From a virus (taxonomy: Duplodnaviria; Heunggongvirae; Uroviricota; Caudoviricetes), in the IMG/VR virus record IMGVR_UViG_2663763339_000003: a DNA stretch of 36,827 nucleotides; one strand, given 5' to 3'. Both the position numbers and the translations under genes were made by a program. The notes beneath the pieces were generated by a model. That model was not told the DNA's origin. It worked only from the letters and a program-made list of their open reading frames with translations, and made no database searches. This document shows positions 3,165-28,119 of the stretch, one piece after another; the stretch's first letter is position 1, and every line of letters begins with the position of its first letter.

Positions 3165-4265
3165 TCATTCCATTTCGAAATCATCAATCTTCACTTCGAG
3201 TTCAATACTGGTTGTAAAACCGTTATCCGGGCTGACAGTATGTGTCAGAGTCGTAATAGTCCATTCCGCATCATCTATCGGCTGTTTAAAGCCACTGACT
3301 TTCACTGGCATTTCCGTGTAGAGATCTGCCCGCCCTTCCGCCAGTTGTAGCGAGAATGACGCAACGCCGCGTTGCAGGCGTTCCCACTGCATTTTTGCCG
3401 CTCGTTCGGCGTTGCTCCGGTTGGCATAAGTGCGATTAAGTACCAGCACGTTTTCATCCGTCCCCACCAGGTAATCGCCCTGCTTCGCTTCCGGCTCTTT
3501 CTTCTGCTTCTTAGTCCTGCGCTTACGCTTCACCGTAGTGCTTTCTTTCTTCGCGGGTTCGCGGGTATGCAACCAGCTGGCAATTACCCCCGTGTAAGCT
3601 CCGCGATCTGCCAGGGTAAAGCGGTGACTGTCGCCGTCCTTACGTGTGATAGTGATCACCGGTAGTGGTTTACCGCTGGCGCTTTTGCCCTGTCCCTGCC
3701 GGATGAATAACAGATTGCCATTTTTCACCGATGCAATGGCACCGTACTGGCGCGCCAGCCGCATCAAAAAACTGCCGTCACTCTCATTAGTCTGGTCTAT
3801 ATGATCCACGGGTTTATCCGACAGGTCTTTACCCAGTGCCATCTTCAGTTTGTGACGCGCAGCTATTTCCTTCACCACTTCCCCGACCGTAGTCTTGTGC
3901 CACGACTTTTCACGGCGGGTATTCAGCGTTTCACGAAAATCAGCACTTCGCGCCCGGATAGTCAGGCGGTCCGGTGCGCCAGTGTGTTCAATCTCGTCCA
4001 CCGTGAATGCCCCTTTCGGGAAAAGCGGCTGCCCTTTCCAGCCCAGCGCCAGCGTAATGGCCGCACCACGGCGCGGCAGCACGATTTTTCCGTCGGCGTC
4101 GTCCAGCTCCAGATCAAGCTGGTCTGCTTCAAAGCCCCGATTGTCCGTCAGCGTCAGACTCATCAGGCGATTATCCAGGACAGTGGTGATATCCCTGCCC
4201 TCAATACTGATGCTGAATGCGGGAGTTTTGTTGCCTTTGTTAAGCAGTTCAGAGCTGAAATTCAC
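3165..4265 (-). CDS. D: tail protein D
   Basis: 366-aa ORF recognised as P2 gpD; sits at the end of the tail operon next to ogr. Confidence 0.85.
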   Translation of the reverse strand: MNFSSELLNKGNKTPAFSISIEGRDITTVLDNRLMSLTLTDNRGFEADQLDLELDDADGKIVLPRRGAAITLALGWKGQPLFPKGAFTVDEIEHTGAPDRLTIRARSADFRETLNTRREKSWHKTTVGEVVKEIAARHKLKMALGKDLSDKPVDHIDQTNESDGSFLMRLARQYGAIASVKNGNLLFIRQGQGKSASGKPLPVITITRKDGDSHRFTLADRGAYTGVIASWLHTREPAKKESTTVKRKRRTKKQKKEPEAKQGDYLVGTDENVLVLNRTYANRSNAERAAKMQWERLQRGVASFSLQLAEGRADLYTEMPVKVSGFKQPIDDAEWTITTLTHTVSPDNGFTTSIELEVKIDDFEME

Positions 4266-4747
4266 GACAGCAGCCCTCCCACCGTTTTACTGATATCGCT
4301 TAAAGCAGATGTTGCCGTTTCCTGCAGATTATTCAGTTGCGCACTGAGATCACCGAACATATCGGACAGGGATTCATCCACTCGTTTGAGCGACAGGGTG
4401 AACTCAATCCGGCGCGGCATACCGTCGCGGAAAAACTCCGTTTTAGTCTGATTCAGTCCCTCAATCACATACATGCCGTAAATCGTGCCACTGCCTTCAA
4501 TCAGGGGCCATGCTTTCCCCTGTTCTGCCATCTGTTCCAGTGCCAGCAACGACAGCCTGCCGCCTGTTATCTCCGGCATAAGAACACCGGAAAGCGTCAG
4601 CATGTCGTTTTCCGGTCCCAGAAACTGCGTGGACGGACGTCGGTTTACCCGGCTGTTTGCCGCATGTCGCCAGCTGCGTTGATACTGCAGTTCCTGATAC
4701 GGCACAGTGCGCAGCATAAACACGTACAATCCCAGCACCATCATCAT
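4262..4747 (-). CDS. U: tail protein U
   Basis: 161-aa ORF, 4-nt overlap with D, P2 gpU position and size. Confidence 0.85.
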   Translation of the reverse strand: MMMVLGLYVFMLRTVPYQELQYQRSWRHAANSRVNRRPSTQFLGPENDMLTLSGVLMPEITGGRLSLLALEQMAEQGKAWPLIEGSGTIYGMYVIEGLNQTKTEFFRDGMPRRIEFTLSLKRVDESLSDMFGDLSAQLNNLQETATSALSDISKTVGGLLS

Positions 4748-7700
4748 GCGTCGTATCCCCCCTGATCGCTGTAGTTACTCCTGGCTTTTGCCTTCAGCCT
4801 GCGTTCACGTTCATCAAGCTGGCGGGCCACCTCCCGAGCAATATCCTGCGCACTTTGTCCTGGCTGCGTCTGAATGATGATCTGCGTCGGTGCCTCAATC
4901 CGCTGAACGGGCGGCACAGTGGCTGCACGACTCACCATCGCTTCGCCGCCTTTCGCGGGAAATGCCAAAGGATGCAACGGTGGAAGCTCTGCAGGCGCGG
5001 CAGTAACGCCCATCATTCCGGCAACAACGGCAGCCAGTGCAGCTGTATTTCTCCGGCTGGTCACATTTGCCGGGCCGTTAACAATTTCCGGCCCGTTTTC
5101 ACCGACGATGCCAAACTGCCCGCGCGGGATATAGCCGCCGCTGTCATACATCCCCGCAAAGCCATATCCCCATGACGGCAAACCACCCGATGGCATCATC
5201 ACTTTACCATCCGCATTCACCGTCGCAGGTTGCTGACGCGTCACGCTTTCCGGCAGTTTCGCCTTTGCAGCCTCTTTACTGACAATGCCGAGTTTCTCCA
5301 GCAACCAGGAAACGCCGGATTTCAGGGAGTCCAGCGGATGCATGACCATATTCAGCCCTTCTGCCAGTGCCTCCCCGAATCGTCGCCCCATTGCCGCTGC
5401 GCTCTGCAGTTCGGCAGAGGTTGACTTAACGGGCGTCAGCAGATCAGTAAACCAGCCCCACAGCGCCTGCACTTTGTCGCCAATCCACTGAAACACAGGC
5501 TTAAGTGGTTCGAATGCTTCACTGATGGGACCTGCCGCCGCTTTGAATCCTTCCACCACGCCACCGAGAAATGCAGTGATGGGTTGCCAGTATTTCCAGA
5601 CAACCAGTGCCACGCCCGCCAGTGCAGTAACCACAAGACCTATCGGACTGAGCAGAGCACCTAACAGGCCAGATACGGCATACAGAGCAACGCGCAGCAT
5701 CGCCAGCGGACCGGATGCCAGTACTCGCAGCACCGCGCCTGCGGCAGCCAGTCCACCGCGTAGTGCTGCCAGTGGATTCATAAACATCACAGCAACAGCA
5801 CGTAAACCGGATAATCCAGACCGCAACAGTGCAACCGGCACACCTGCTACAGTTTTCAGGACATTCCCCGTCAGTGATGCCGTGCGGCGCAAAGACGACA
5901 ACGGCGCAGTAAGTAAACCCGCTGCGTTGCCCGATGAAGCAAGCCCGCGTCGCAGCAGTGCCAGTGGAGCGCCAGCTAACCAGGACAACGCGCTGCTGGT
6001 TCGTGTTACTGCTGCCGTAACGGAAGGTAACGTTTTGATGCCCAGCACAGAGAATCCCAGACGGATGACTGCCAGCGGCCCCAGCACTGCAGCCAGCGCC
6101 ACAGCCAAGGTGCCGAGGCCTACGGTAACCGCAGCCACAATAGCAGCTACTTTCATCAGTGTGCCCGTCAGTTCCGGGTTAGCTTCCACCCAGCGACGCA
6201 ACGCCCCCGTGACGCTTTTCACCGTGTACAGAATATCCATCAGCGGCTGGCGCAGCGTTTCGCCCAGGCTGCTGAAGGTATTCTGCGCTCCGGTTTTAAC
6301 CAGCAACCACTGAGCAGAAAGTGAGTCCTTGTTGATGTCGGATTCTTTCTGCATGGAACCGAGCGCATCATTGCCCGCTGTCAGTTTTAGCTGGCGCTGC
6401 AGTTCCGGAAGGTTGTTTGCCAGTTTCGCCGCGTCATCACCAAACTCTTTACCAAACAACATGGTCATGGCAGACAGACGCTTGTCCTGCGGCAGTGCGT
6501 TCACCTTCTCCAGCACACGCTGGATAGTTCCCATCGCATCCTTCGTCATCTGCTTTTCAATCACTTCAGGATTGAGTTTCAGCAGATTCATCCCTTCAAA
6601 GAAACTCTTGCTTTGCATGGTGGCAATGGACAATTCACGCACCATCGCGTTTGCTGCACTGGCTGCAACCTCCGGCGCAGCGCCCAGTGTCAGAAAGGTG
6701 GAACCCAGTGCCGCCGCTTTACGATAATCCAGACGGTCAGCCACACCGCCCAGACGTTGCATCACATCAATGATGTCCGCCCCTTTCGACATGGCGTTAT
6801 CATCCAGATAGTTCAGCGCATCGCCGAGCTGTTCAATATTGCGGGTAGGTATTTTGTAGAGCTGGGCGATTTTCCCCAGACTTTCTGACAGTTCATCCGC
6901 TGGCAGCTCAAAGGCTGTTGCCGCCTTTGCTGCCGTACTGGCGAAGGCCAGCAGGTCACGTTTCTGGTCTTCCCAGCTGTCGTCAGGGTTTGCGACGTTC
7001 ATGCGCGCACCACCTTCAACCAGTGCAGCGAAATCCACCGCACCTTTTTCCATCGGCAACTGTTCGCTGGCAGCCTTGATGGCATCCTGCATTTCATAAA
7101 AACGTGCAGTGCGGTTGCCATTATCGTCACGCAGACCATTGACCTGCTTTGCCACACCTTTCATGGCATCTTCCATGCTGGTATAGCTTTTTACTGCCGC
7201 CATCACTGGCGCACCCATTGCCAGCCCTGCAGCCGTGGTAGTGGCTCCGGCTCCTGCAATACGATCACGCACCTCCAGCGAACGGGCATAACTGGCACGC
7301 GCCGCATTCATCCTGCGCTGAGCTTCCCCCAGTCGCTTCAGCCGCGCCTCTTGTTTCGAAAGTTCCTGGTTATAACGTGATGTTTCACGGGCTAAACGGG
7401 CAGTTGCTCCCGCATCATCTTTCGCAGAAATTCCCGCCCGGTACAGTTCTGCACGCACAAGCGCCGTTTGCTTCTGCAAATATTTTTGTTGTTCTTCCAG
7501 GCGTTGGACTGCCAGCGTTTGCCGACCTAAAGCCACAAGATGCCTTTGTGATGGTTGTTCCATCGCTTCCAGCTCAGAACTAAGCAAATTTGCCTTCTGT
7601 CTGGCATAGTTCAGCCTGTCGCCTAACTTTTTGTTATCGGCCTGCAGCTTGCGAAATTTTTCCAGGCTGTTACCCGCCTGATTGAGTTGCTTTAATGCGT

Positions 7701-21801: not shown

Positions 21802-23568
21802 ATGAACACCACACTGACACCCGCAGATCTCGATCCCCGTCGGCAGGCCATGCTGCTGTACTTTCAGGGATACCGCGTCGCCCGCATTGCTGAAATGCTG
21901 GGCGAGAAAGTTGCAACCGTTCACAGCTGGAAAAAACGCGACAAGTGGGGTGACTATGGGCCGCTGGATCAGATGCAGCTCACCACCGCCGCACGCTACT
22001 GCCAGCTCATTATGAAGGAGCACAAAGAAGGGAAAGATTTCAAAGAAATTGACCTGCTGGCACGCCAGTCTGAGCGCCACGCGCGGATCGGCAAGTTTAA
22101 CAATGGCGGCAACGAAGCCGACTTAAACCCTAACGTTGCCAACCGCAACAAAGGCCCACGTCGTCAGCCGGAAAAGAATGTTTTCACCGATGAACAGATT
22201 GAGAAACTGGAAGAAATCTTCCATTCCTCCATGTTCAACTACCAGCGCCACTGGTGGGAAGCCGGAAAAACCAACCGCATCCGCAACCTGCTGAAGTCAC
22301 GCCAGATCGGCGCGACCTTTTACTTTGCCCGTGAAGCCCTGATTGACGCCCTGCTGACCGGGCGTAACCAGATTTTCCTTTCTGCCAGCAAGGCTCAGGC
22401 CCACGTCTTTAAACAGTACATCATCGACTTTGCCAAAGAAGTGGAGGTGGAGCTGAAAGGCGATCCGATGGTGCTTCCTAACGGGGCCACGCTTTACTTC
22501 CTCGGCACCAATGCCCGCACGGCCCAGAGTTACCACGGCAACCTGTATCTGGATGAATATTTCTGGATACCGAAATTCCAGGAGCTGCGCAAAGTGGCTT
22601 CCGGTATGGCTATTCACAAAAAATGGCGACAAACCTATTTTTCCACGCCATCCAGTCTGACACACAGTGCTTATCCGTTCTGGTCCGGTGCGCTGTTCAA
22701 CCGTGGGCGCAACAAAGCCGATAAGGTGGACATCGACCTGTCCCACAGCAATCTGGCCCCCGGCCTGCTGTGCGCAGACGGGCAATACCGCCAGATAGTC
22801 ACCGTGGAAGATGCGGTGCGCGGCGGCTGTAACCTGTTCGACCTCGACCAGCTACGCATGGAGTACAGCCCGGACGAATACCAGAACCTGCTGATGTGCG
22901 AGTTTGTGGACGATCTCGCGTCCGTGTTTCCGCTCAGCGAGCTGCAGGCGTGCATGGTGGACAGTTGGGAAGTCTGGACCGACTTTCATGCACTGGCGCT
23001 GCGCCCGTTTGGCTGGCGCGAAGTGTGGATCGGTTATGACCCGGCAAAAGGTACGCAAAACGGCGACAGCGCTGGATGCGTGGTGGTGGCACCGCCAGCC
23101 GTGCCGGGTGGTAAGTTCCGCATTCTTGAGCGTCACCAGTGGCGCGGGATGGACTTCCGCGCCCAGGCTGACGCCATCAAAAAACTTACCGAACAGTACA
23201 ACGTGACCTATATCGGTATCGACTCAACCGGCGTTGGTCACGGGGTTTACGAGAACGTGAAAGCGTTCTTTCCTGCCGTCCGGGAGTTTGTCTACAACCC
23301 CAACGTTAAAAACGCCCTGGTACTCAAGGCCTACGACATTATCAGCCACCGCCGTCTGGAGTTTGACGCCGGGCACACCGACATTGCGCAGTCATTCATG
23401 GCAATCCGTCGCGCAACCACCGCCAGTGGCAACCGCCCAACCTATGAAGCCAGCCGCAGCGAAGAAGCCAGCCACGCCGATCTGGCCTGGGCAACAATGC
23501 ACGCACTGTTTAACGAACCACTGCAGGGCGAGTCCGCCAATACCAGTAATATTGTGGAGATTTTTTGA
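21802..23568 (+). CDS. P: terminase ATPase (large) subunit P
   Basis: 588-aa ORF, P2 gpP size and position. Confidence 0.9.
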   Translation: MNTTLTPADLDPRRQAMLLYFQGYRVARIAEMLGEKVATVHSWKKRDKWGDYGPLDQMQLTTAARYCQLIMKEHKEGKDFKEIDLLARQSERHARIGKFNNGGNEADLNPNVANRNKGPRRQPEKNVFTDEQIEKLEEIFHSSMFNYQRHWWEAGKTNRIRNLLKSRQIGATFYFAREALIDALLTGRNQIFLSASKAQAHVFKQYIIDFAKEVEVELKGDPMVLPNGATLYFLGTNARTAQSYHGNLYLDEYFWIPKFQELRKVASGMAIHKKWRQTYFSTPSSLTHSAYPFWSGALFNRGRNKADKVDIDLSHSNLAPGLLCADGQYRQIVTVEDAVRGGCNLFDLDQLRMEYSPDEYQNLLMCEFVDDLASVFPLSELQACMVDSWEVWTDFHALALRPFGWREVWIGYDPAKGTQNGDSAGCVVVAPPAVPGGKFRILERHQWRGMDFRAQADAIKKLTEQYNVTYIGIDSTGVGHGVYENVKAFFPAVREFVYNPNVKNALVLKAYDIISHRRLEFDAGHTDIAQSFMAIRRATTASGNRPTYEASRSEEASHADLAWATMHALFNEPLQGESANTSNIVEIF

Positions 23569-24593
23569 TGGGAAAGAGTAAGAAGAACCGCGCTGCGTCG
23601 ACGAACCAGATCCAGCATAAAAGTCAAACTACAGCCGAAGCATTCAGCTTCGGTGATCCCGTTCCTGTTCTGGACCGCCGCGAACTACTGGACTATGTGG
23701 AATGCGTACAGACAGATCGCTGGTATGAGCCGCCAGTAAGCTTTGACGGACTGGCGCGCACCTTCCGCGCCGCCGTGCATCACAGTTCACCAATTGCGGT
23801 GAAATGCAACATTCTGACCAGTACCTACATCCCCCACCCGCTGCTCAGCCAGCAGGCTTTTTCACGTTTTGTGCAGGACTATCTGGTATTTGGTAACGCC
23901 TACCTGGAGAAACGCACGAACCGCTTCGGTGAAGTTATCGCCCTTGAGCCTGCTCTGGCAAAATACACCCGACGCGGGTTAGACCTGGATACCTACTGGT
24001 TTGTGCAATACGGTATGACAACCCAGCCGTATCAGTTCACGAAAGACAGCATTTTTCATCTGATGGAACCGGACATTAACCAGGAGATCTACGGCCTGCC
24101 CGGCTATCTTTCTGCCATTCCGTCCGCCCTGCTCAATGAGTCCGCCACGCTGTTCCGACGCAAATATTACATCAACGGCAGCCATGCAGGCTTCATCATG
24201 TATATGACCGATGCCGCGCAGAATCAGGAGGATGTGAACAATCTCCGCAACGCGATGAAAAGTGCCAAAGGTCCTGGTAACTTCCGCAACCTGTTTATGT
24301 ACTCGCCTAATGGCAAAAAAGACGGGCTTCAGATCATCCCGTTGTCAGAAGTCGCAGCGAAGGATGAATTTCTGAACATCAAGAACGTGAGCCGGGACGA
24401 TATGATGGCGGCGCATCGTGTACCGCCACAGATGATGGGGATTATGCCGAATAATGTTGGGGGATTTGGGGATGTGGAGAAATCGGCTAAAGTATTTGTG
24501 CGAAATGAGTTATTGCCGTTGCAAAAACGATTAATAGAAATTAACTCGTGGGTAAATATGGAAATTATAAAATATACCGCATACAAATTATAA
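23565..24593 (+). CDS. Q: portal protein Q
   Basis: 342-aa ORF with ATGA overlap to P; the last ~25 codons are encoded by AT-rich DNA. Confidence 0.85.
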   Translation: MMGKSKKNRAASTNQIQHKSQTTAEAFSFGDPVPVLDRRELLDYVECVQTDRWYEPPVSFDGLARTFRAAVHHSSPIAVKCNILTSTYIPHPLLSQQAFSRFVQDYLVFGNAYLEKRTNRFGEVIALEPALAKYTRRGLDLDTYWFVQYGMTTQPYQFTKDSIFHLMEPDINQEIYGLPGYLSAIPSALLNESATLFRRKYYINGSHAGFIMYMTDAAQNQEDVNNLRNAMKSAKGPGNFRNLFMYSPNGKKDGLQIIPLSEVAAKDEFLNIKNVSRDDMMAAHRVPPQMMGIMPNNVGGFGDVEKSAKVFVRNELLPLQKRLIEINSWVNMEIIKYTAYKL

Positions 24594-24600
24594 CATTCAA

Positions 24601-24625
24601 AAGGATTGGCATAACACCAATCCTT
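24601..24625. terminator. putative bidirectional terminator between convergent Q and the SIR2-like gene
   Basis: hairpin aaggattgg - cataaca - ccaatcctt; no strong T-run. Confidence 0.35.
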
Positions 24626-24641
24626 CCATCATATAGATACG

Positions 24642-25514
24642 CTACCAATTCATGCTTTCTTTTAATTCAGTTCGCGCATTTTCAACAAGTTGTACTAACT
24701 CTTTAAGACTATCAGTTAACACTTGATGACTACCTTTATTTGTTCTATATGTTAACATATTTACATTTAATGTTTTTTCAATAACAGGAACCATATCTCT
24801 ATGAATACTTTTATCAGCCATAACCATATAATGTGGTTTAACAGCATTGTGCTTGAAAAAAGCATCTTCCAGAAGAAGCCTTATATCGGGGTCATTAGCC
24901 CCACAACCTATAAATAGAAATGTATGCGTTAAACCCAAGGCATTAAGAATCTCGTAAAAATCTCTGTACTGTGATCTTGCCTTTGCATAATCACTTCTTG
25001 AAAAAATCAAGTTTGACGTATTATCAATTGTGCCGTGAATTTTCAGGATAACACGACCACTATCCTTTATTGCACTTGCAATATCACTATCAAAATAATT
25101 TTTGACACTTACCGTGCCTTCTGTTTCTTTACTAACATATGTTTCATATATTTTATCAAAATTAGGCGTTACAACAATCCTGCAATCTAATTTAAAAAGA
25201 AACTCATGTATATCTGCTTTAGCATAATGTGGATTCAAGAATGCATTTTTTGCAATTTCATCGAACCTCCCTTTAGGAAGCTTTGCCTTAATTAATTCAC
25301 AAGCAGTCAAATAATCTTCGTTTTTAATCAATCGTTTAATTTGTAGCGATGACCCAGAACTGAGTTCTGGTAAACATCCTTCAAGAAATTGTTTCCAACT
25401 TGGAGGCCGTGAATTACCTTTACCAACACTGTTCATTGAGACGCCTGCCCCCAGAAATAAAATACATTTCCGTCTCGCTAAATCGGAGACTAAGCTTTTA
25501 TCCCAATTAATCAT
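24642..25514 (-). CDS. SIR2-like (SIR2_2-type) NAD-binding protein, putative NADase effector
   Basis: 290 aa; N-terminal LFLGAGVS glycine-rich Rossmann motif, VVTPNFD (cf. TTNYD) and KIHGT motifs; ATGA overlap with the upstream ATPase gene. Confidence 0.7.
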   Translation of the reverse strand: MINWDKSLVSDLARRKCILFLGAGVSMNSVGKGNSRPPSWKQFLEGCLPELSSGSSLQIKRLIKNEDYLTACELIKAKLPKGRFDEIAKNAFLNPHYAKADIHEFLFKLDCRIVVTPNFDKIYETYVSKETEGTVSVKNYFDSDIASAIKDSGRVILKIHGTIDNTSNLIFSRSDYAKARSQYRDFYEILNALGLTHTFLFIGCGANDPDIRLLLEDAFFKHNAVKPHYMVMADKSIHRDMVPVIEKTLNVNMLTYRTNKGSHQVLTDSLKELVQLVENARTELKESMNW

Positions 25515-26518
25515 GACTCACTCGCAGCAACATTATCAAGGATACGGGAACAAATACTTTCAAAAAGCTTCTTAGCATCGTTTACTTTTGAAAAGTGCGA
25601 TCCTACTACCCCATCTTTATTTTTAAGATTAAAAATTGGAGCATTTGCTAATTGAGACAATGGAATTAAGCTATTCATATTCTCAATTTGCCCTAAATCA
25701 AAATTCATATCTTGTTTTTTTGCGTAATTATTGATTATTTCTGCTTTCATTGCCTTAGGAATTTTAAGTGCAATTTTTTCATACGCATTAACTTTTACTT
25801 TCTCTCCCCTTACTGTTTTCCCTTTATATTGTTGCATCGCATACCCAAGAAACTTCAGTCTGCACTGTAAAGATGAGCCATCGATGATAAAATCTTCACC
25901 TTCATTTTTAGTATAGTTTTTCAGGCCATCAGATACACCTTCCATCCAGGCCTTTAGCGAAAGGTTAATATTATTAAGAGCTAAAAGACTAAACATATCA
26001 ACAGACATTGGAATAATGAAATAGTCACATGATATTATTATTGCTCTATTCAATGCACCTAATGAAGGACCTACATCATATAAAATAAAATCATAGTCTT
26101 TATACATGGAGGACAGATGTGAAAAAACAAATGTTGTTTGTATACCTCGAGGTTTCCCTGCCACAGCGGGGTCCCAATCAGATGCTAAAAAATCCTCACT
26201 CAACGCTAACTTGGGATCCCCAGGAATCAAGTCAAAACCAAACCTATCAGTTTTTATTGGAACTACACGAGTAGTTGCATATCCTTTTGCCCTCCGAACT
26301 GGGGTTAAGAAATTTTCAATTGTATTTCTCTTATCAGAACCATAAAGTTCATCAAGTTTTTTCTCTCCCAAACAATAAGATGTTGTGTTGCACTGAGGAT
26401 CGGCGTCAATAACCAACACTTTTTTGTGCATCTCAAGACTAAGATAAGCACCAACATTACACAACAATGTAGTTTTGCCAACGCCACCTTTATTATTGAA
26501 AAAAACTATACTGTTCAT
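25511..26518 (-). CDS. ParA/MinD-family P-loop ATPase with C-terminal extension
   Basis: 335 aa; deviant Walker A NNKGGVGKTT at residues 8-17 and an Asp-rich Walker B-like region (VLVIDADPQ). Confidence 0.8.
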   Translation of the reverse strand: MNSIVFFNNKGGVGKTTLLCNVGAYLSLEMHKKVLVIDADPQCNTTSYCLGEKKLDELYGSDKRNTIENFLTPVRRAKGYATTRVVPIKTDRFGFDLIPGDPKLALSEDFLASDWDPAVAGKPRGIQTTFVFSHLSSMYKDYDFILYDVGPSLGALNRAIIISCDYFIIPMSVDMFSLLALNNINLSLKAWMEGVSDGLKNYTKNEGEDFIIDGSSLQCRLKFLGYAMQQYKGKTVRGEKVKVNAYEKIALKIPKAMKAEIINNYAKKQDMNFDLGQIENMNSLIPLSQLANAPIFNLKNKDGVVGSHFSKVNDAKKLFESICSRILDNVAASES

Positions 26519-26557
26519 CTATAACATTGCTCATTTTATCACTCAAATTTCCTGAGA

Positions 26558-26587
26558 TTTATACATAAGATTAATCGCAATGTCCAA
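26558..26587 (-). promoter_or_regulatory. candidate sigma70 promoter for the ParA-SIR2 operon
   Basis: minus-strand TTGGAC - 18 nt - TATAAA about 40-70 nt upstream of the ParA-like ATG. Confidence 0.3.
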
Positions 26588-26664
26588 TCAGCTTTAACAT
26601 TAATTAACACCTCTTTTAAGATTAAAATTTTGTTAAGAAATGCACTCTAGCCCCATGGCGCGCG

Positions 26665-26683
26665 CTCGTATCCCCGCCACGCC
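26665..26683 (-). other. cos-like site (cohesive end region)
   Basis: minus-strand GGCGTGGCGGGGA... resembles the start of P2/186 cohesive ends as I recall them; GC-rich island in AT-rich surroundings. Confidence 0.4.
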
Positions 26684-26723
26684 TGCCCGCTTTATGTAGT
26701 GGTTTTCATGCAGGTGCATGATC

Positions 26724-26856: not shown

Positions 26857-27534
26857 CTAGAACGTGACAGCCTTGTCAAAGCCAGAAATAATTGTATAAG
26901 AAATAGACGAGTTATCAGCCTTGTTCACTTTGAACTTGGCACCTTTGTAAGCGATAACATCACTTCCCTTAGAATCTACAGAAAAATCTGTTGTAAATGC
27001 TGCACGAGCCATATCGTTTGCAAATTCACGATAGGTGAACTTCATTACACCGCCTGCATTTCCATTGTATTCGATAGTCTTAACCAATGAATTACTCACT
27101 CGACACAGCCCATCAGGAACACGTTTGATAGAAATTTCTGATGCAGTATAAGAAGTGCCATTTGGCGGTGATATCTCATTTTTTGCAGCATCGTAACTAA
27201 CATAATCAACATAGTTACCGATTTGCCCATAGAGATTTTTTAACGCAACAGCTTGAGGGTTATGATAATTGCGGTAAATTCCATTCCCCTCACTGCAATA
27301 TGTACCAGCAGCGATAGAAGACAATGCACCATTAGCCGCACCAAGTTCTAGTACGTCCGTTTTAAATCCAGTAGCAGATGTGATAATGGGATCGCCCATG
27401 TAGGCGGTAGCACTTTGCCCAATAGCTGGCTTCACCACTTCAATAGCAGTGATATTTCGGTTAGAAGCATGTGGCACGCAACCAGTTAGGATTACAGCAA
27501 GAGATATTGGTAACGCTACATTATTAATTTTCAT
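26857..27534 (-). CDS. lipoprotein of unknown function (cargo gene)
   Basis: start at MKINNVALPISLAVILTGC with lipobox LTGC (ORF track extends to 27588); AT-rich. Confidence 0.65.
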   Translation of the reverse strand: MKINNVALPISLAVILTGCVPHASNRNITAIEVVKPAIGQSATAYMGDPIITSATGFKTDVLELGAANGALSSIAAGTYCSEGNGIYRNYHNPQAVALKNLYGQIGNYVDYVSYDAAKNEISPPNGTSYTASEISIKRVPDGLCRVSNSLVKTIEYNGNAGGVMKFTYREFANDMARAAFTTDFSVDSKGSDVIAYKGAKFKVNKADNSSISYTIISGFDKAVTF

Positions 27535-27558
27535 TTTTAGCCTATTATTCTTTTCTTG

Positions 27559-27593
27559 ACAAAAAACAAGGCGATATCTGATTGACATCGCCT
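27559..27593 (-). terminator. rho-independent terminator downstream of the DinI-like gene
   Basis: minus-strand hairpin ggcgatgtcaatcagatatcgcc followed by TTGTTTTTTG. Confidence 0.5.
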
Positions 27594-27647
27594 CTCACTC
27601 ATATGTAACCCTTTTTGATTAGTAAAAACAAGCGTCTATTGACAAAA

Positions 27648-27881
27648 TCAATGCAGCCAGCTGTCGTCTTCCCACACCTTCTGCAAAATTTTCATCACTT
27701 GTTTTCTTTCTTCGTCCAGTTGCAGTCCGGTCAGTTCCACACCGTTAGAGCTACCTTTACGGATACGGATTACCGTTTTGGGATACAGGGGGCGCAGATT
27801 GCGGTAAAGCTCGGATTCAAGGGCGTCCAGGGTAGACTGGCTAATCTTCTGCTCTTTATCGATCATTATTTCAATGCGCAT
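27648..27881 (-). CDS. DinI-family protein
   Basis: MRIEIMIDKEQKISQSTLDALESEL...QKVWEDDSWLH resembles DinI; start taken at the internal Met (ORF track extends to 27953). Confidence 0.7.
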   Translation of the reverse strand: MRIEIMIDKEQKISQSTLDALESELYRNLRPLYPKTVIRIRKGSSNGVELTGLQLDEERKQVMKILQKVWEDDSWLH

Positions 27882-27891
27882 AAAAGTCACC

Positions 27892-28080
27892 TCAACTGAT
27901 GACATCCATTGAGCGGTTGTATTCGTGGGTTCTGATTTTTGCCATGAGTTCATCAGTCAATTCAGAAACCCACTGCAGAGCCAGCCCCTTCTCTTCATCA
28001 CTACACTCACTAGCCGCTACAAGCTTAAGAAAAAAATCAATGCGCTGGAGCTTCAAAGACTCCAAAAAATAGTCCTGCAT
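27892..28080 (-). CDS. small hypothetical protein, first gene of the LexA-box transcript (possible Tum-like antirepressor)
   Basis: GGAGG ribosome-binding site 5 nt upstream of ATG at 28080; LexA box just upstream. Confidence 0.45.
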   Translation of the reverse strand: MQDYFLESLKLQRIDFFLKLVAASECSDEEKGLALQWVSELTDELMAKIRTHEYNRSMDVIS

Positions 28081-28119
28081 CTTTCCTCCTATGACACCAA
28101 AGCAATACTGTATATACAA

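Follow-up and report, generated by a model that had tools for sequence, protein, structure and literature searches.

A ParA/MinD-type ATPase gene coupled to a SIR2 gene in the Q-cos slot of a P2-like prophage, a candidate two-gene anti-phage module

Introduction

SIR2 NADases are a major effector class in bacterial immunity, and what varies between the systems that use them is the sensing of infection. Control of such an effector by a ParA-type ATPase would constitute a new principle of sensing or gating. The question raised by the present locus is whether two genes carried by a prophage, one for a ParA/MinD-type ATPase and one for a SIR2 protein, form a system of this kind. The genes lie in a viral DNA of 36,827 nucleotides (IMG/VR record IMGVR_UViG_2663763339_000003), and this whole stretch is called the window in this study. 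An initial annotation, made from the sequence of the window, proposed that they are an undescribed anti-phage system. Overall, our comparison of sequences and structural models suggests a prophage-borne cargo module of two genes, self-contained and horizontally mobile, that would act against phages by abortive infection; we assign this reading a probability of about 0.6.

Results and Discussion

Gene layout and boundaries of the cassette

In the list of open reading frames both genes are on the minus strand, with the ParA/MinD-type ATPase gene (25511-26518; 335 aa) upstream of the SIR2_2 gene (24642-25514; 290 aa). The junction reads ...GAG TCA TGA TTA AT..., and the TGA stop of the ParA-like gene and the ATG start of the SIR2 gene share the ATGA read at 25511-25514 on the minus strand, an overlap that couples the two genes. 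The reading frames and the junction sequence are thus in agreement with the 4-nt overlap described in the initial annotation.

The host element of the cassette is a P2/Fels-2-like prophage, and the slot is located between portal gene Q and a cos-like site, as annotated earlier. The stop codon of Q is at 24593; homology with other E. coli genomes and with Fels-2-like phages ends near this stop and resumes at 26658. The GC content is 0.33-0.37 over 24501-26500 compared with 0.50-0.59 in the flanking phage genes, consistent with the AT-rich nature already noted for the locus. The GC profile and the homology breakpoints delimit a cargo cassette of low GC content, about 2.06 kb long (24594-26657), in the Q-cos slot. 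The cos-like site is a GC-rich segment at approximately 26666-26685 (minus strand, GGCGTGGCGGGGATACGAGC), placed by eye and by the Fels-2-like homology breakpoint; judging from its resemblance to the 186-type cos, it is the putative cos of this prophage. A search of the whole window for the P2 cos sequence (GGCGAGGCGGGGAAAGCAC), allowing up to three mismatches, gave no match.

A sigma-70-like promoter candidate, TGGACA-17 nt-TATAAA (26558-26586, minus strand), was identified by eye some 40 nt ahead of the start codon of the ParA-like gene and represents a consensus match only. Genes Q and SIR2 are convergent, and a hairpin (GGATTGG-CATAACA-CCAATCC; 24603-24623) lies in the sequence that separates them; it is terminator-like since TTTT follows it on the minus strand. 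Scanning with consensus promoter and terminator patterns revealed matches no commoner than in shuffled sequence, and neither candidate found by eye appeared in the output; the promoter candidate was missed because the scan accepts only T as the sixth base of the -10 hexamer.

The SIR2 protein

Analysis of the 290-aa protein revealed the motifs ILFLGAGVS, VVTPNFD and KIHGT and a match to Pfam SIR2_2 (PF13289) with an E-value of 1.6e-23 (83.8 bits; cutoff 24.5), so that the SIR2-type domain recognized earlier from LFLGAGVS, TPNFD and IHGT is well founded. The initial annotation had also called for a structural check of the fold, and the AF2 model (pLDDT 90.8) found its best matches in DSR2, ThsA and KomC with a TM-score of about 0.75 (range 0.72-0.76 for DSR2 and ThsA). 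The predicted catalytic residues are N118 in TPNFD and H160 in KIHGT, the latter aligned to H146 of KomC. Both residues are invariant in 44 homologs; among 56 diverse pairs N118 is present in 55 and H160 in all 56. The nearest solved relatives, KomC, ThsA and DSR2, are all defence NADases, and the PADLOC matches of the protein are confined to the SIR2 domain in ThsA, LmuA and Dsr. The protein is a bare, stand-alone SIR2 domain without a sensor domain and, from its sequence and model, is predicted to be an NAD+ hydrolase effector.

A 665-aa homolog, P0254, was considered as a ParA-SIR2 fusion and rejected, since the part joined to SIR2 is a fragment of a DNA methylase.

The ParA/MinD-type ATPase

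The 335-aa protein carries NNKGGVGKTT, a deviant Walker A motif with the signature lysine. Pfam matches to AAA_31 (E=2e-29) and CbiA (E=7e-14) were found in addition, and the ParA/MinD type assigned initially from KGGVGKTT is thereby upheld. The motif residues, namely K10 and K15 of the deviant Walker A, D38 and D40 of Walker A' and D148 of Walker B, are invariant in 45 homologs and are kept in 54-56 of 56 diverse pairs. One part of the initial description did not stand: a C-terminal extension of about 130 aa had been regarded as an added part, but no separate domain was found there, and the alignment with Soj/ParA takes in the entire AF2 model (pLDDT 92; Foldseek E ~1e-12). The extra residues are accommodated, in the same manner as in PDB 3pg5, by internal insertions (~45-95 and 207-243) together with a long helix at the C-terminus. 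Conserved motifs specific to this clade are found in the C-terminal part at 229-231 (QQY), 288-289 (SQ) and 302-306 (DGVVG).

The best PDB relative of the ATPase is 3pg5, which matches over the full length by sequence (E=9e-49) and by structure (Foldseek E=1e-19, TM 0.71-0.76). This entry is DIP2308 from Corynebacterium diphtheriae, an uncharacterised structural-genomics entry. Judged by these alignments and the model, the 335-aa protein is a ParA/MinD-type (SIMIBI) ATPase of a 3pg5-like clade.

Conservation and genomic context of the pair

Comparison across genomes revealed the SIR2 gene directly downstream of the ParA-like gene in all 55 assessable loci. The pair occurs in Proteobacteria, Firmicutes, Actinobacteria, Bacteroidota, Cyanobacteria, Planctomycetota, Acidobacteriota and Myxococcota. 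The intergenic gap in the 55 other genomes is -4 in 20, -8 in seven and -1 in six, and most of the others are within about 10-25 nt; larger negative values are an artefact of ORF calling. At least 19 IMG/VR phage contigs show the same gene order, mostly with overlaps of 1-8 nt, and the adjacency was found in all IMG/VR contigs with enough flank. Among the 56 diverse pairs the pairwise identities of the ATPase and of the SIR2 protein are correlated (r=0.67). The ParA-like and SIR2 genes are a conserved unit that is co-inherited. The cassette is rare; among complete E. coli genomes it is present in 12 of 5426, always at the same P2 Q-cos site; homologs were found in none of 50,697 GenBank phage records.

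A frameshifted ParA-like gene beside an intact SIR2 gene was noticed in one IMG/VR contig (L165/L091) and set aside; the sequence is of draft quality, with an N and homopolymer indels, and hence allows no inference on an antitoxin role.

Recurrence of the pair elsewhere, a check proposed in the initial annotation, was observed at sites where prophages carry cargo, in integrase-bounded elements, and next to genes for restriction enzymes and methylases. One pair adjoins a Type ISP restriction enzyme, one follows a DNA methyltransferase, one lies inside a lambdoid prophage and one belongs to an element bounded by an integrase. The pair also occurs as two-gene islets amid housekeeping genes, and its contexts in Serratia and K. 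aerogenes are not defence islands. In strain NCTC9008 the Q-cos slot is occupied instead by a cassette of a hypothetical gene and a TIR gene.

Comparison with known systems

In SIR2-HerA (Nezha) the ATPase controls SIR2 via assembly. This system resembles the window pair in consisting of two genes, an ASCE-fold ATPase and a SIR2_2 NADase effector, and in occurring in the same P2/P4 hotspots, for which 'SIR2_2 + DUF87' is listed in Table S5A of Rousset 2022 (PMC9122126). The ATPases differ in class, HerA being a HerA/FtsK-type hexameric translocase whereas the window partner is a SIMIBI-class ParA/MinD dimer-switch ATPase. The order of ATPase then SIR2, and the bare 290-aa SIR2 domain, also set the window pair apart. 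No HerA/DUF87 partner was detected at the locus with Pfam, NCBIfam or PADLOC, and the ATPase matched ParA-type families only.

KomC of Kongming is the closest solved relative of the SIR2 protein by sequence (E=1e-12) and is likewise a small stand-alone SIR2 protein with aligned catalytic Asn and His. According to PDB titles and to Zeng et al. 2025 as summarized in a citing paper, KomC requires a nucleotide-binding partner protein and forms filaments upon activation. The two proteins share only ~22% identity in the structural alignment, and the partner in the window is of ParA type; neither KomA nor KomB was found in the two-gene cassette, judging by its reading frames and by the Pfam families of the two genes.

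In structure, the SIR2 domains of DSR2 and ThsA match the full 290-aa protein best and share its catalytic residues. DSR2 has its own sensor region of ~700 aa, which is absent from the 290-aa protein. The single-protein format of DSR1/DSR2 (~1000-1250 aa) is far longer than 290 aa, and the NCBIfam Dsr2 model scored 25.6 bits against a cutoff of 1400. Thoeris ThsA has a SLOG domain and depends on the TIR protein ThsB, whereas the window SIR2 protein has no SLOG domain and the cassette no TIR gene; the ThsA models align over positions 12-228 of 478 only. For Lamassu, the PADLOC LmuA match (E=2.6e-20) does not extend beyond the SIR2 domain, and no LmuB-like SMC partner is present in the window region.

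The ParABS ATPases (Soj/ParA, SopA and ParF) and MinD share with the window ATPase the fold, the deviant Walker A lysine, Walker A' and Walker B. Unlike them, the window ATPase is accompanied by no ParB, MinE or centromere, shows ~18-21% identity to Soj and has insertions of its own clade; its partner in the assessed pairs is always SIR2.

With respect to novelty, PADLOC-DB 2.0 and NCBIfam 20.0 hold no model for the pair, and these collections and PHROGs gave generic domain matches only. Running PADLOC on the locus, as the initial annotation had advised, returned only generic SIR2 domain matches and no named system, and a search of open-access papers and bioRxiv found no work naming or testing a ParA-like + SIR2 pair. 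The exact arrangement (WP_044069624 + WP_044069625) is found in Table S5A of Rousset 2022 (PMC9122126), where it was neither named nor tested. Hence the claim of an undescribed system holds in so far as the pair is unnamed in PADLOC-DB 2.0, NCBIfam 20.0 and the literature, but the arrangement itself had already been listed. A 334-aa E. coli 'ParA family protein' is a predicted novel defence gene in the DefensePredictor supplement, and its link to the window ATPase is putative. AhCobQ, a ParA-family 'lysine deacetylase' (PMC11856932), was considered and set aside by its description (264 aa, no stated link to SIR2_2).

Proposed mechanism

We infer an anti-phage function, NADase activity, an ATPase-SIR2 complex, the identity of the trigger and the direction of control, with the ATPase as repressor or activator. 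In the proposed scheme the ParA-type ATPase would bind the SIR2 protein, and its ATP-driven monomer/dimer switch would keep SIR2 inactive. An infection cue, for which phage DNA, phage proteins and nucleotide changes are candidates, would shift this switch; the SIR2 protein would then assemble into an active oligomer that hydrolyses and depletes NAD+. Depletion of NAD+ would halt phage replication, and the cell would be sacrificed. ParA proteins are dimer switches that are normally driven by DNA and short partner peptides, which makes the system tractable for finding the cue that is read.

Related cassettes with other effectors

Homologous ParA-like ATPases were found tightly coupled to RelA_SpoT genes in 15 phage contigs, to a HEPN gene, and to SLFN_AlbA_2 (Schlafen/AlbA_2) genes in 20 genomes. 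An untested 'ParA/AAA_31 | RelA_SpoT' cassette of the P2 hotspot is listed as Table S5B #110 in Rousset 2022 (PMC9122126). It shares the hotspot and the gene order with the window cassette, and its ATPase is homologous, with 29% identity over 333 aa in an alignment that extends into the C-terminal part; the difference lies in the effector, a small toxSAS-like RelA_SpoT protein in place of SIR2. Taken with the HEPN and Schlafen/AlbA_2 partners, this pairing suggests that the ATPase is a regulator common to several toxic effectors that can replace one another.

Tentatively, and with somewhat more doubt than belief, we suggest that 3pg5-like ParA/MinD ATPases may be a widespread and unrecognised immunity hub, in which a SIMIBI dimer switch would act as sensor or regulator for interchangeable effectors (SIR2 NADase, toxSAS-type RelA_SpoT, HEPN RNase, Schlafen/AlbA_2), with the modules lying in hotspots of prophages and on small mobile islets in various bacterial phyla. 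If this is true, a new NTPase class would stand beside the STAND, AAA+, ABC/SMC, HerA, KAP, McrB and dynamin-like proteins in defence, and the ParA family would gain a role unrelated to the positioning of cargo. A small E. coli cassette could then open up a whole family of modules, and a function could be given to the orphan 3pg5 and to many 'ParA family protein' genes that prophage and plasmid annotation may have mistaken for partition genes. The match of 3pg5 to an AlbA_2-linked member of the ATPase family (E=8e-33) is somewhat weaker than its match to the window ATPase.

Alternative explanations

A toxin-antitoxin or addiction role, which overlaps with abortive infection, would produce the same genomic signature. 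In such a module the SIR2 protein would be an NADase with constitutive toxicity that the ParA-like ATPase counteracts as antitoxin, and the pair would serve to stabilise the prophage or island more than to fend off phages. The bicistronic, overlapping and mobile two-gene architecture is like that of toxin-antitoxin loci, the RelA_SpoT enzymes paired with ParA-like relatives are of the toxSAS toxin type (Jimmy et al. 2020, PMC7229694), and the swapping of partners is reminiscent of hyperpromiscuous antitoxins (Ernits et al. 2023, PMC10440598). Nevertheless, no ParA-type antitoxin is among those in PMC7229694 or PMC10440598, and a partner of 335 aa with all ATPase motifs conserved would be unusual for a simple neutralising antitoxin. 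Moreover, the expectation of a constitutive toxin does not fit the nearest defence relatives, which are latent enzymes. The SIR2 proteins of ThsA, DSR2, SIR2-HerA and KomBC are activated through oligomerisation. We therefore consider a toxin-antitoxin role unlikely.

SIR2 domains can also be deacylases or ADP-ribosyltransferases. With such an activity the protein would modify one particular substrate, perhaps the ATPase itself or else a protein of host or phage, and modulate prophage or host physiology outside immunity, as the annotation of some homologs as 'NAD-dependent protein deacylase' (P0051) may indicate. Membership of SIR2_2 (PF13289) and not of the classical sirtuins, the defence NADases that make up all of the nearest neighbours in sequence and structure, and a patchy, mobile, low-GC distribution that fits accessory conflict genes render non-immune regulation distinctly improbable.

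The initial annotation had judged a partition module unlikely, and we find it very hard to sustain that the ParA-like ATPase segregates or positions a plasmid-like prophage or cellular cargo with SIR2 as an accessory, in spite of the ParA/Soj fold with its deviant Walker A, the PHROGs family label 'ParA-like partition protein' and the putative StbA-type partition system found in the hotspot of about one quarter of P2-like phages (Rousset 2022, PMC9122126). The window contains no ParB or adaptor ORF and only two-copy chance repeats, with no iterated array, and no ParB or centromere partner was seen in the other examined contexts of the pair. The constancy of SIR2 as partner, the occurrence of the pair as chromosomal islets and its rarity on plasmids (8 of 72,556) also argue against partition. 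Plasmid pVPon1, which carries the pair, has a separate, bona fide ParA-ParB operon; its true ParA scores 36 bits against the window ATPase, whereas its SIR2-linked ATPase scores 317 bits.

Organization of the cassette in the prophage

The window is a P2/Fels-2-like prophage. Next after the plus-strand genes for terminase P (21802-23568) and portal Q (23565-24593), two minus-strand genes encode a 335-aa ParA-like ATPase (25511-26518) and a 290-aa SIR2 protein (24642-25514). The junction sequence GAG TCA TGA TTA places the ATPase stop and the SIR2 ATG in a shared ATGA at 25511-25514, in agreement with the overlap described in the initial annotation. The AT-richness described there was also found, with a GC content of 0.33-0.37 over 24501-26500 compared with 0.50-0.59 for the phage genes that flank this stretch. 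A GC-rich, cos-like site lies 5' of the ATPase gene (~26666-26685; minus strand GGCGTGGCGGGGATACGAGC), which we take to resemble the 186-type cos. Megablast homology to other P2-like elements ends just past Q and restarts at 26658, which delimits the cassette to ~24594-26657, a slot for cargo that separates Q from cos. In E. coli NCTC9008 (locus L103, 2739-4087) the same slot is filled by another minus-strand pair, a hypothetical protein and a TIR-domain protein, indicating that the slot is a site of cargo exchange. Inspection by eye suggested a candidate promoter (TGGACA-17-TATAAA, 26586-26558, minus strand) that a consensus scan did not report and a candidate hairpin (GGATTGG/CCAATCC, 24603-24623), with TTTT next to it when read along the minus strand, that was likewise not reported by the scan.

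The SIR2 protein

The 290-aa protein matched Pfam SIR2_2 (E=1.6e-23), and its PADLOC matches were only to the SIR2 parts of ThsA, LmuA, Dsr1/2, Avs5 and some candidate systems. Its closest solved relatives by sequence are KomC (Kongming), ThsA and DSR2. Residues N118 (TPNFD) and H160 (KIHGT) align with catalytic residues, H160 corresponding to H146 of KomC. The AF2 model (pLDDT 90.8) superposed on the DSR2 SIR2 domain, ThsA and KomC with TM values of 0.72-0.76 over essentially all 290 residues; HMM match and superposition both bear out the SIR2-type domain proposed earlier. The protein is therefore a bare effector domain without a sensor domain. An exhaustive profile-free search (E<=1e-30), clustered at 50% identity, yielded 127 representatives of this ~285-293-aa SIR2 type.

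Two homologs deserve separate mention. At locus L004 (NZ_CP069692.1, 6243-7115) RefSeq/PGAP starts the SIR2 protein at an internal ATG, making it 264 aa long and leaving 74 nt between it and the ParA-like gene; the full 290-aa ORF, which overlaps at ATGA, is intact there and its length agrees with the 287-293 aa of the homologs, so the annotated start site is probably wrong. In protein P0254 (665 aa) a small-SIR2 homolog continues, by fusion or readthrough, into part of a DNA methylase (N6_N4_Mtase), which hints at an adjacent restriction-modification gene in its metagenomic contig.

The ParA-like ATPase

The 335-aa protein matched AAA_31, CbiA and related ParA-type Pfam families and carries KGGVGKTT with the signature lysine K10, as expected from the deviant Walker A of ParA/MinD type noted in the initial annotation. 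The best match of its AF2 model (pLDDT 92) was PDB 3pg5 (DIP2308, an uncharacterised structural-genomics target; sequence match E=9e-49), followed by Soj and ParA structures. Alignments to Soj cover the whole chain; the ~130-aa C-terminal extension assigned to this protein, the one observed detail of the initial annotation that was not upheld, consists of internal insertions and a long terminal helix. Among 45 homologs the ATPase motifs are invariant, and so, in the last third of the protein, are many residues specific to the clade (QQY 229-231, K234, SQ 288-289 and DGVVG 302-306). In one phage record (L165/L091, IMGVR_UViG_2609460219_000011) the ParA-like gene is apparently broken into two ORFs. 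Relative to the window, this record has an N inserted behind a run of A, lacks one nucleotide in a run of G, has another N for a base and carries one T/C substitution; this split was rejected as a natural ParA-like knockout because the N and homopolymer-type differences indicate draft-sequence error.

Conservation and genomic settings of the pair

Each protein has hundreds of homologs, co-occurring on the same contigs. Scanning one genome per species with a ParA-like alignment gave 80 loci, and pairing was counted over the 55 assessable loci with an ATPase of at least 196 bits. A SIR2 homolog lies directly downstream on the same strand in all 55, with gene overlaps of 4, 8 or 1 nt in most. These loci belong to Alpha-, Beta-, Gamma- and Deltaproteobacteria, Firmicutes, Actinobacteria, Bacteroidota, Cyanobacteria, Planctomycetota, Acidobacteriota and Myxococcota. 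Of 56 pairs, 54-56 keep the catalytic residues, and across these 56 pairs the pairwise identities of the ATPase and of the SIR2 protein are correlated (r=0.67).

Recurrence of the pair, a point raised in the initial annotation, was found near restriction/methyltransferase genes and in prophage and integrase settings. In Myroides its neighbour is a Type ISP restriction enzyme, and in Salmonella it follows a DNA methyltransferase. The Halomonas pair lies within a lambdoid prophage, the Vibrio pair abuts an integrase of phage type, and the pairs of Serratia and Klebsiella aerogenes each form a two-gene islet amid housekeeping genes. The cassette is present in 12 of 5426 complete E. coli genomes, every time adjoining the portal gene, and the pair in at least 19 IMG/VR phage contigs, one of which likewise has it immediately behind a P2-type portal gene.

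Other partners of the ATPase clade

Remoter clade members align full length at 26-36% identity and are coupled equally tightly to other genes. In 20 of the 24 genome loci of a sister clade (L063-L083, e.g. L069:3769-4986 and 4983-6002), which have no SIR2 gene, the gene for a ~400-aa SLFN_AlbA_2 + HATPase_c_4 protein (Schlafen-like plus wHTH) lies directly upstream and overlaps, so that the two genes make up a further conserved module. In 15 IMG/VR phage contigs (L152, L154-L157, L160-L164, L166, L168, L169, L173 and L177; e.g. L154:5001-6110 and 6113-6769) a small RelA_SpoT (toxSAS-like) gene lies directly downstream of a ~365-aa ParA-like ATPase gene, in L162 after a P2-type portal gene. This cassette is also entry #110 of Table S5B in Rousset et al. 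2022 (PMC9122126), located in the E. coli P2 hotspot; the ATPase of that entry shares 29% identity over 333 aa with that of the window. A HEPN_RiboL-PSP gene follows the ParA-like gene in one phage contig (L158:2710-3774 and 3781-4383). On one contig (L138:3755-8293) the gene order is AlbA_2, ParA-like and then a gene for a 771-aa protein whose PglZ match is weak (24.6 bits, E=2.8e-5, just under the Pfam cutoff of 25). An unpaired member (L062:4917-8803) lies directly upstream of complete Lamassu LmuA (Cap4-nuclease type) and LmuB genes. RelA_SpoT toxSAS enzymes, HEPN RNases and SIR2 NADases are established toxic effectors in toxin-antitoxin and defence systems. Since such effectors are among the partners, the ATPase appears to act like an unchanging regulatory unit whose effectors can be exchanged, and this combination is the most interesting lead of the analysis.

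In one phage-contig lineage (L125-L136) the ParA-like gene (~4992-5990) lies between ORFs of 93 and 95 aa, neither with a Pfam match, and this locus may represent genuine partition and not defence.

Previous descriptions

The initial annotation recognised no named system with this pairing, and our searches concur. PADLOC-DB 2.0 holds no model for the pair and none for the ATPase except a Walker-A-only match to PDC-M28B, neither protein reaches any NCBIfam 20.0 (June 2026) family, and no paper naming or testing a ParA + SIR2 system was found in full-text literature (open-access papers, bioRxiv). Rousset et al. 2022 (PMC9122126) do catalogue the arrangement in Table S5A (WP_044069624 + WP_044069625); the available rows of their curated Table S5B contain no ParA + SIR2 entry, and their text has no description of testing or naming. 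Among the predicted novel defence genes of the DefensePredictor supplement is one for a 334-aa E. coli 'ParA family protein', which may be a homolog of the window ATPase. The toxSAS (PMC7229694) and NetFlax (PMC10440598) papers include no ParA-type partner. The pair is catalogued, not characterised, and so far as these searches reach the ATPase appears to be a class of SIR2 partner new to defence.

Proposed function

Defence SIR2 domains (ThsA, DSR2, SIR2-HerA, SIR2-APAZ/pAgo, KomBC) are latent NADases that become active by oligomerisation when a sensor part recognises infection. ParA/MinD ATPases switch between monomers and ATP-bound sandwich dimers. In the dimeric form they attach to DNA or membrane and to partner proteins, and their ATP hydrolysis is boosted by partner peptides. 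Every computational test available favoured the earlier interpretation, and we consider a defence system, namely SIR2-based abortive infection with a ParA-type partner, the probable function (probability about 0.6), based on the intact P-loop dimer-switch ATPase, the intact bare SIR2 domain, tight gene coupling, mobility, the lack of partition partners and relatives with other toxic effectors. In a specific gating scheme, which we regard as much less probable, the ATPase would bind SIR2 and make the assembly of SIR2 depend on its own nucleotide and dimer state. Phage DNA, a phage protein or a change in nucleotides would be the cue of infection that shifts this state, whereupon NAD+ would be depleted and infection aborted. 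The ATPase could either repress or activate SIR2.

The architecture also fits a toxin-antitoxin or addiction module, a reading that overlaps with abortive infection and that we regard as rather improbable. A non-immune deacylase or ADP-ribosyltransferase is disfavoured by the family and neighbours of the SIR2 protein and is quite unlikely. Partition is ruled out as far as sequence analysis goes, since plasmid pVPon1 has a genuine ParA (399 aa)-ParB operon 3.6 kb from the pair, its true ParA scoring 36 bits against the window ATPase and its SIR2-linked ATPase 317 bits; the pair occurs in only 8 of 72,556 plasmids, and the window holds no ParB-like ORF or iterated repeats, as stated in the initial annotation.

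Genes beyond cos

Past cos lie genes for a 243-aa lipoprotein-like protein, a DinI homolog (27648-27953), a 75-aa ORF (phrog_698) and replication gene A, with a second cargo slot between cos and gene A (26857-28119) that holds the first three of these. The lipoprotein-like protein (signal LAVILTGC; phrog_1353, function unknown) has no Pfam or PADLOC match. A KAP-family P-loop NTPase takes the place of its gene in E. coli MIN6.
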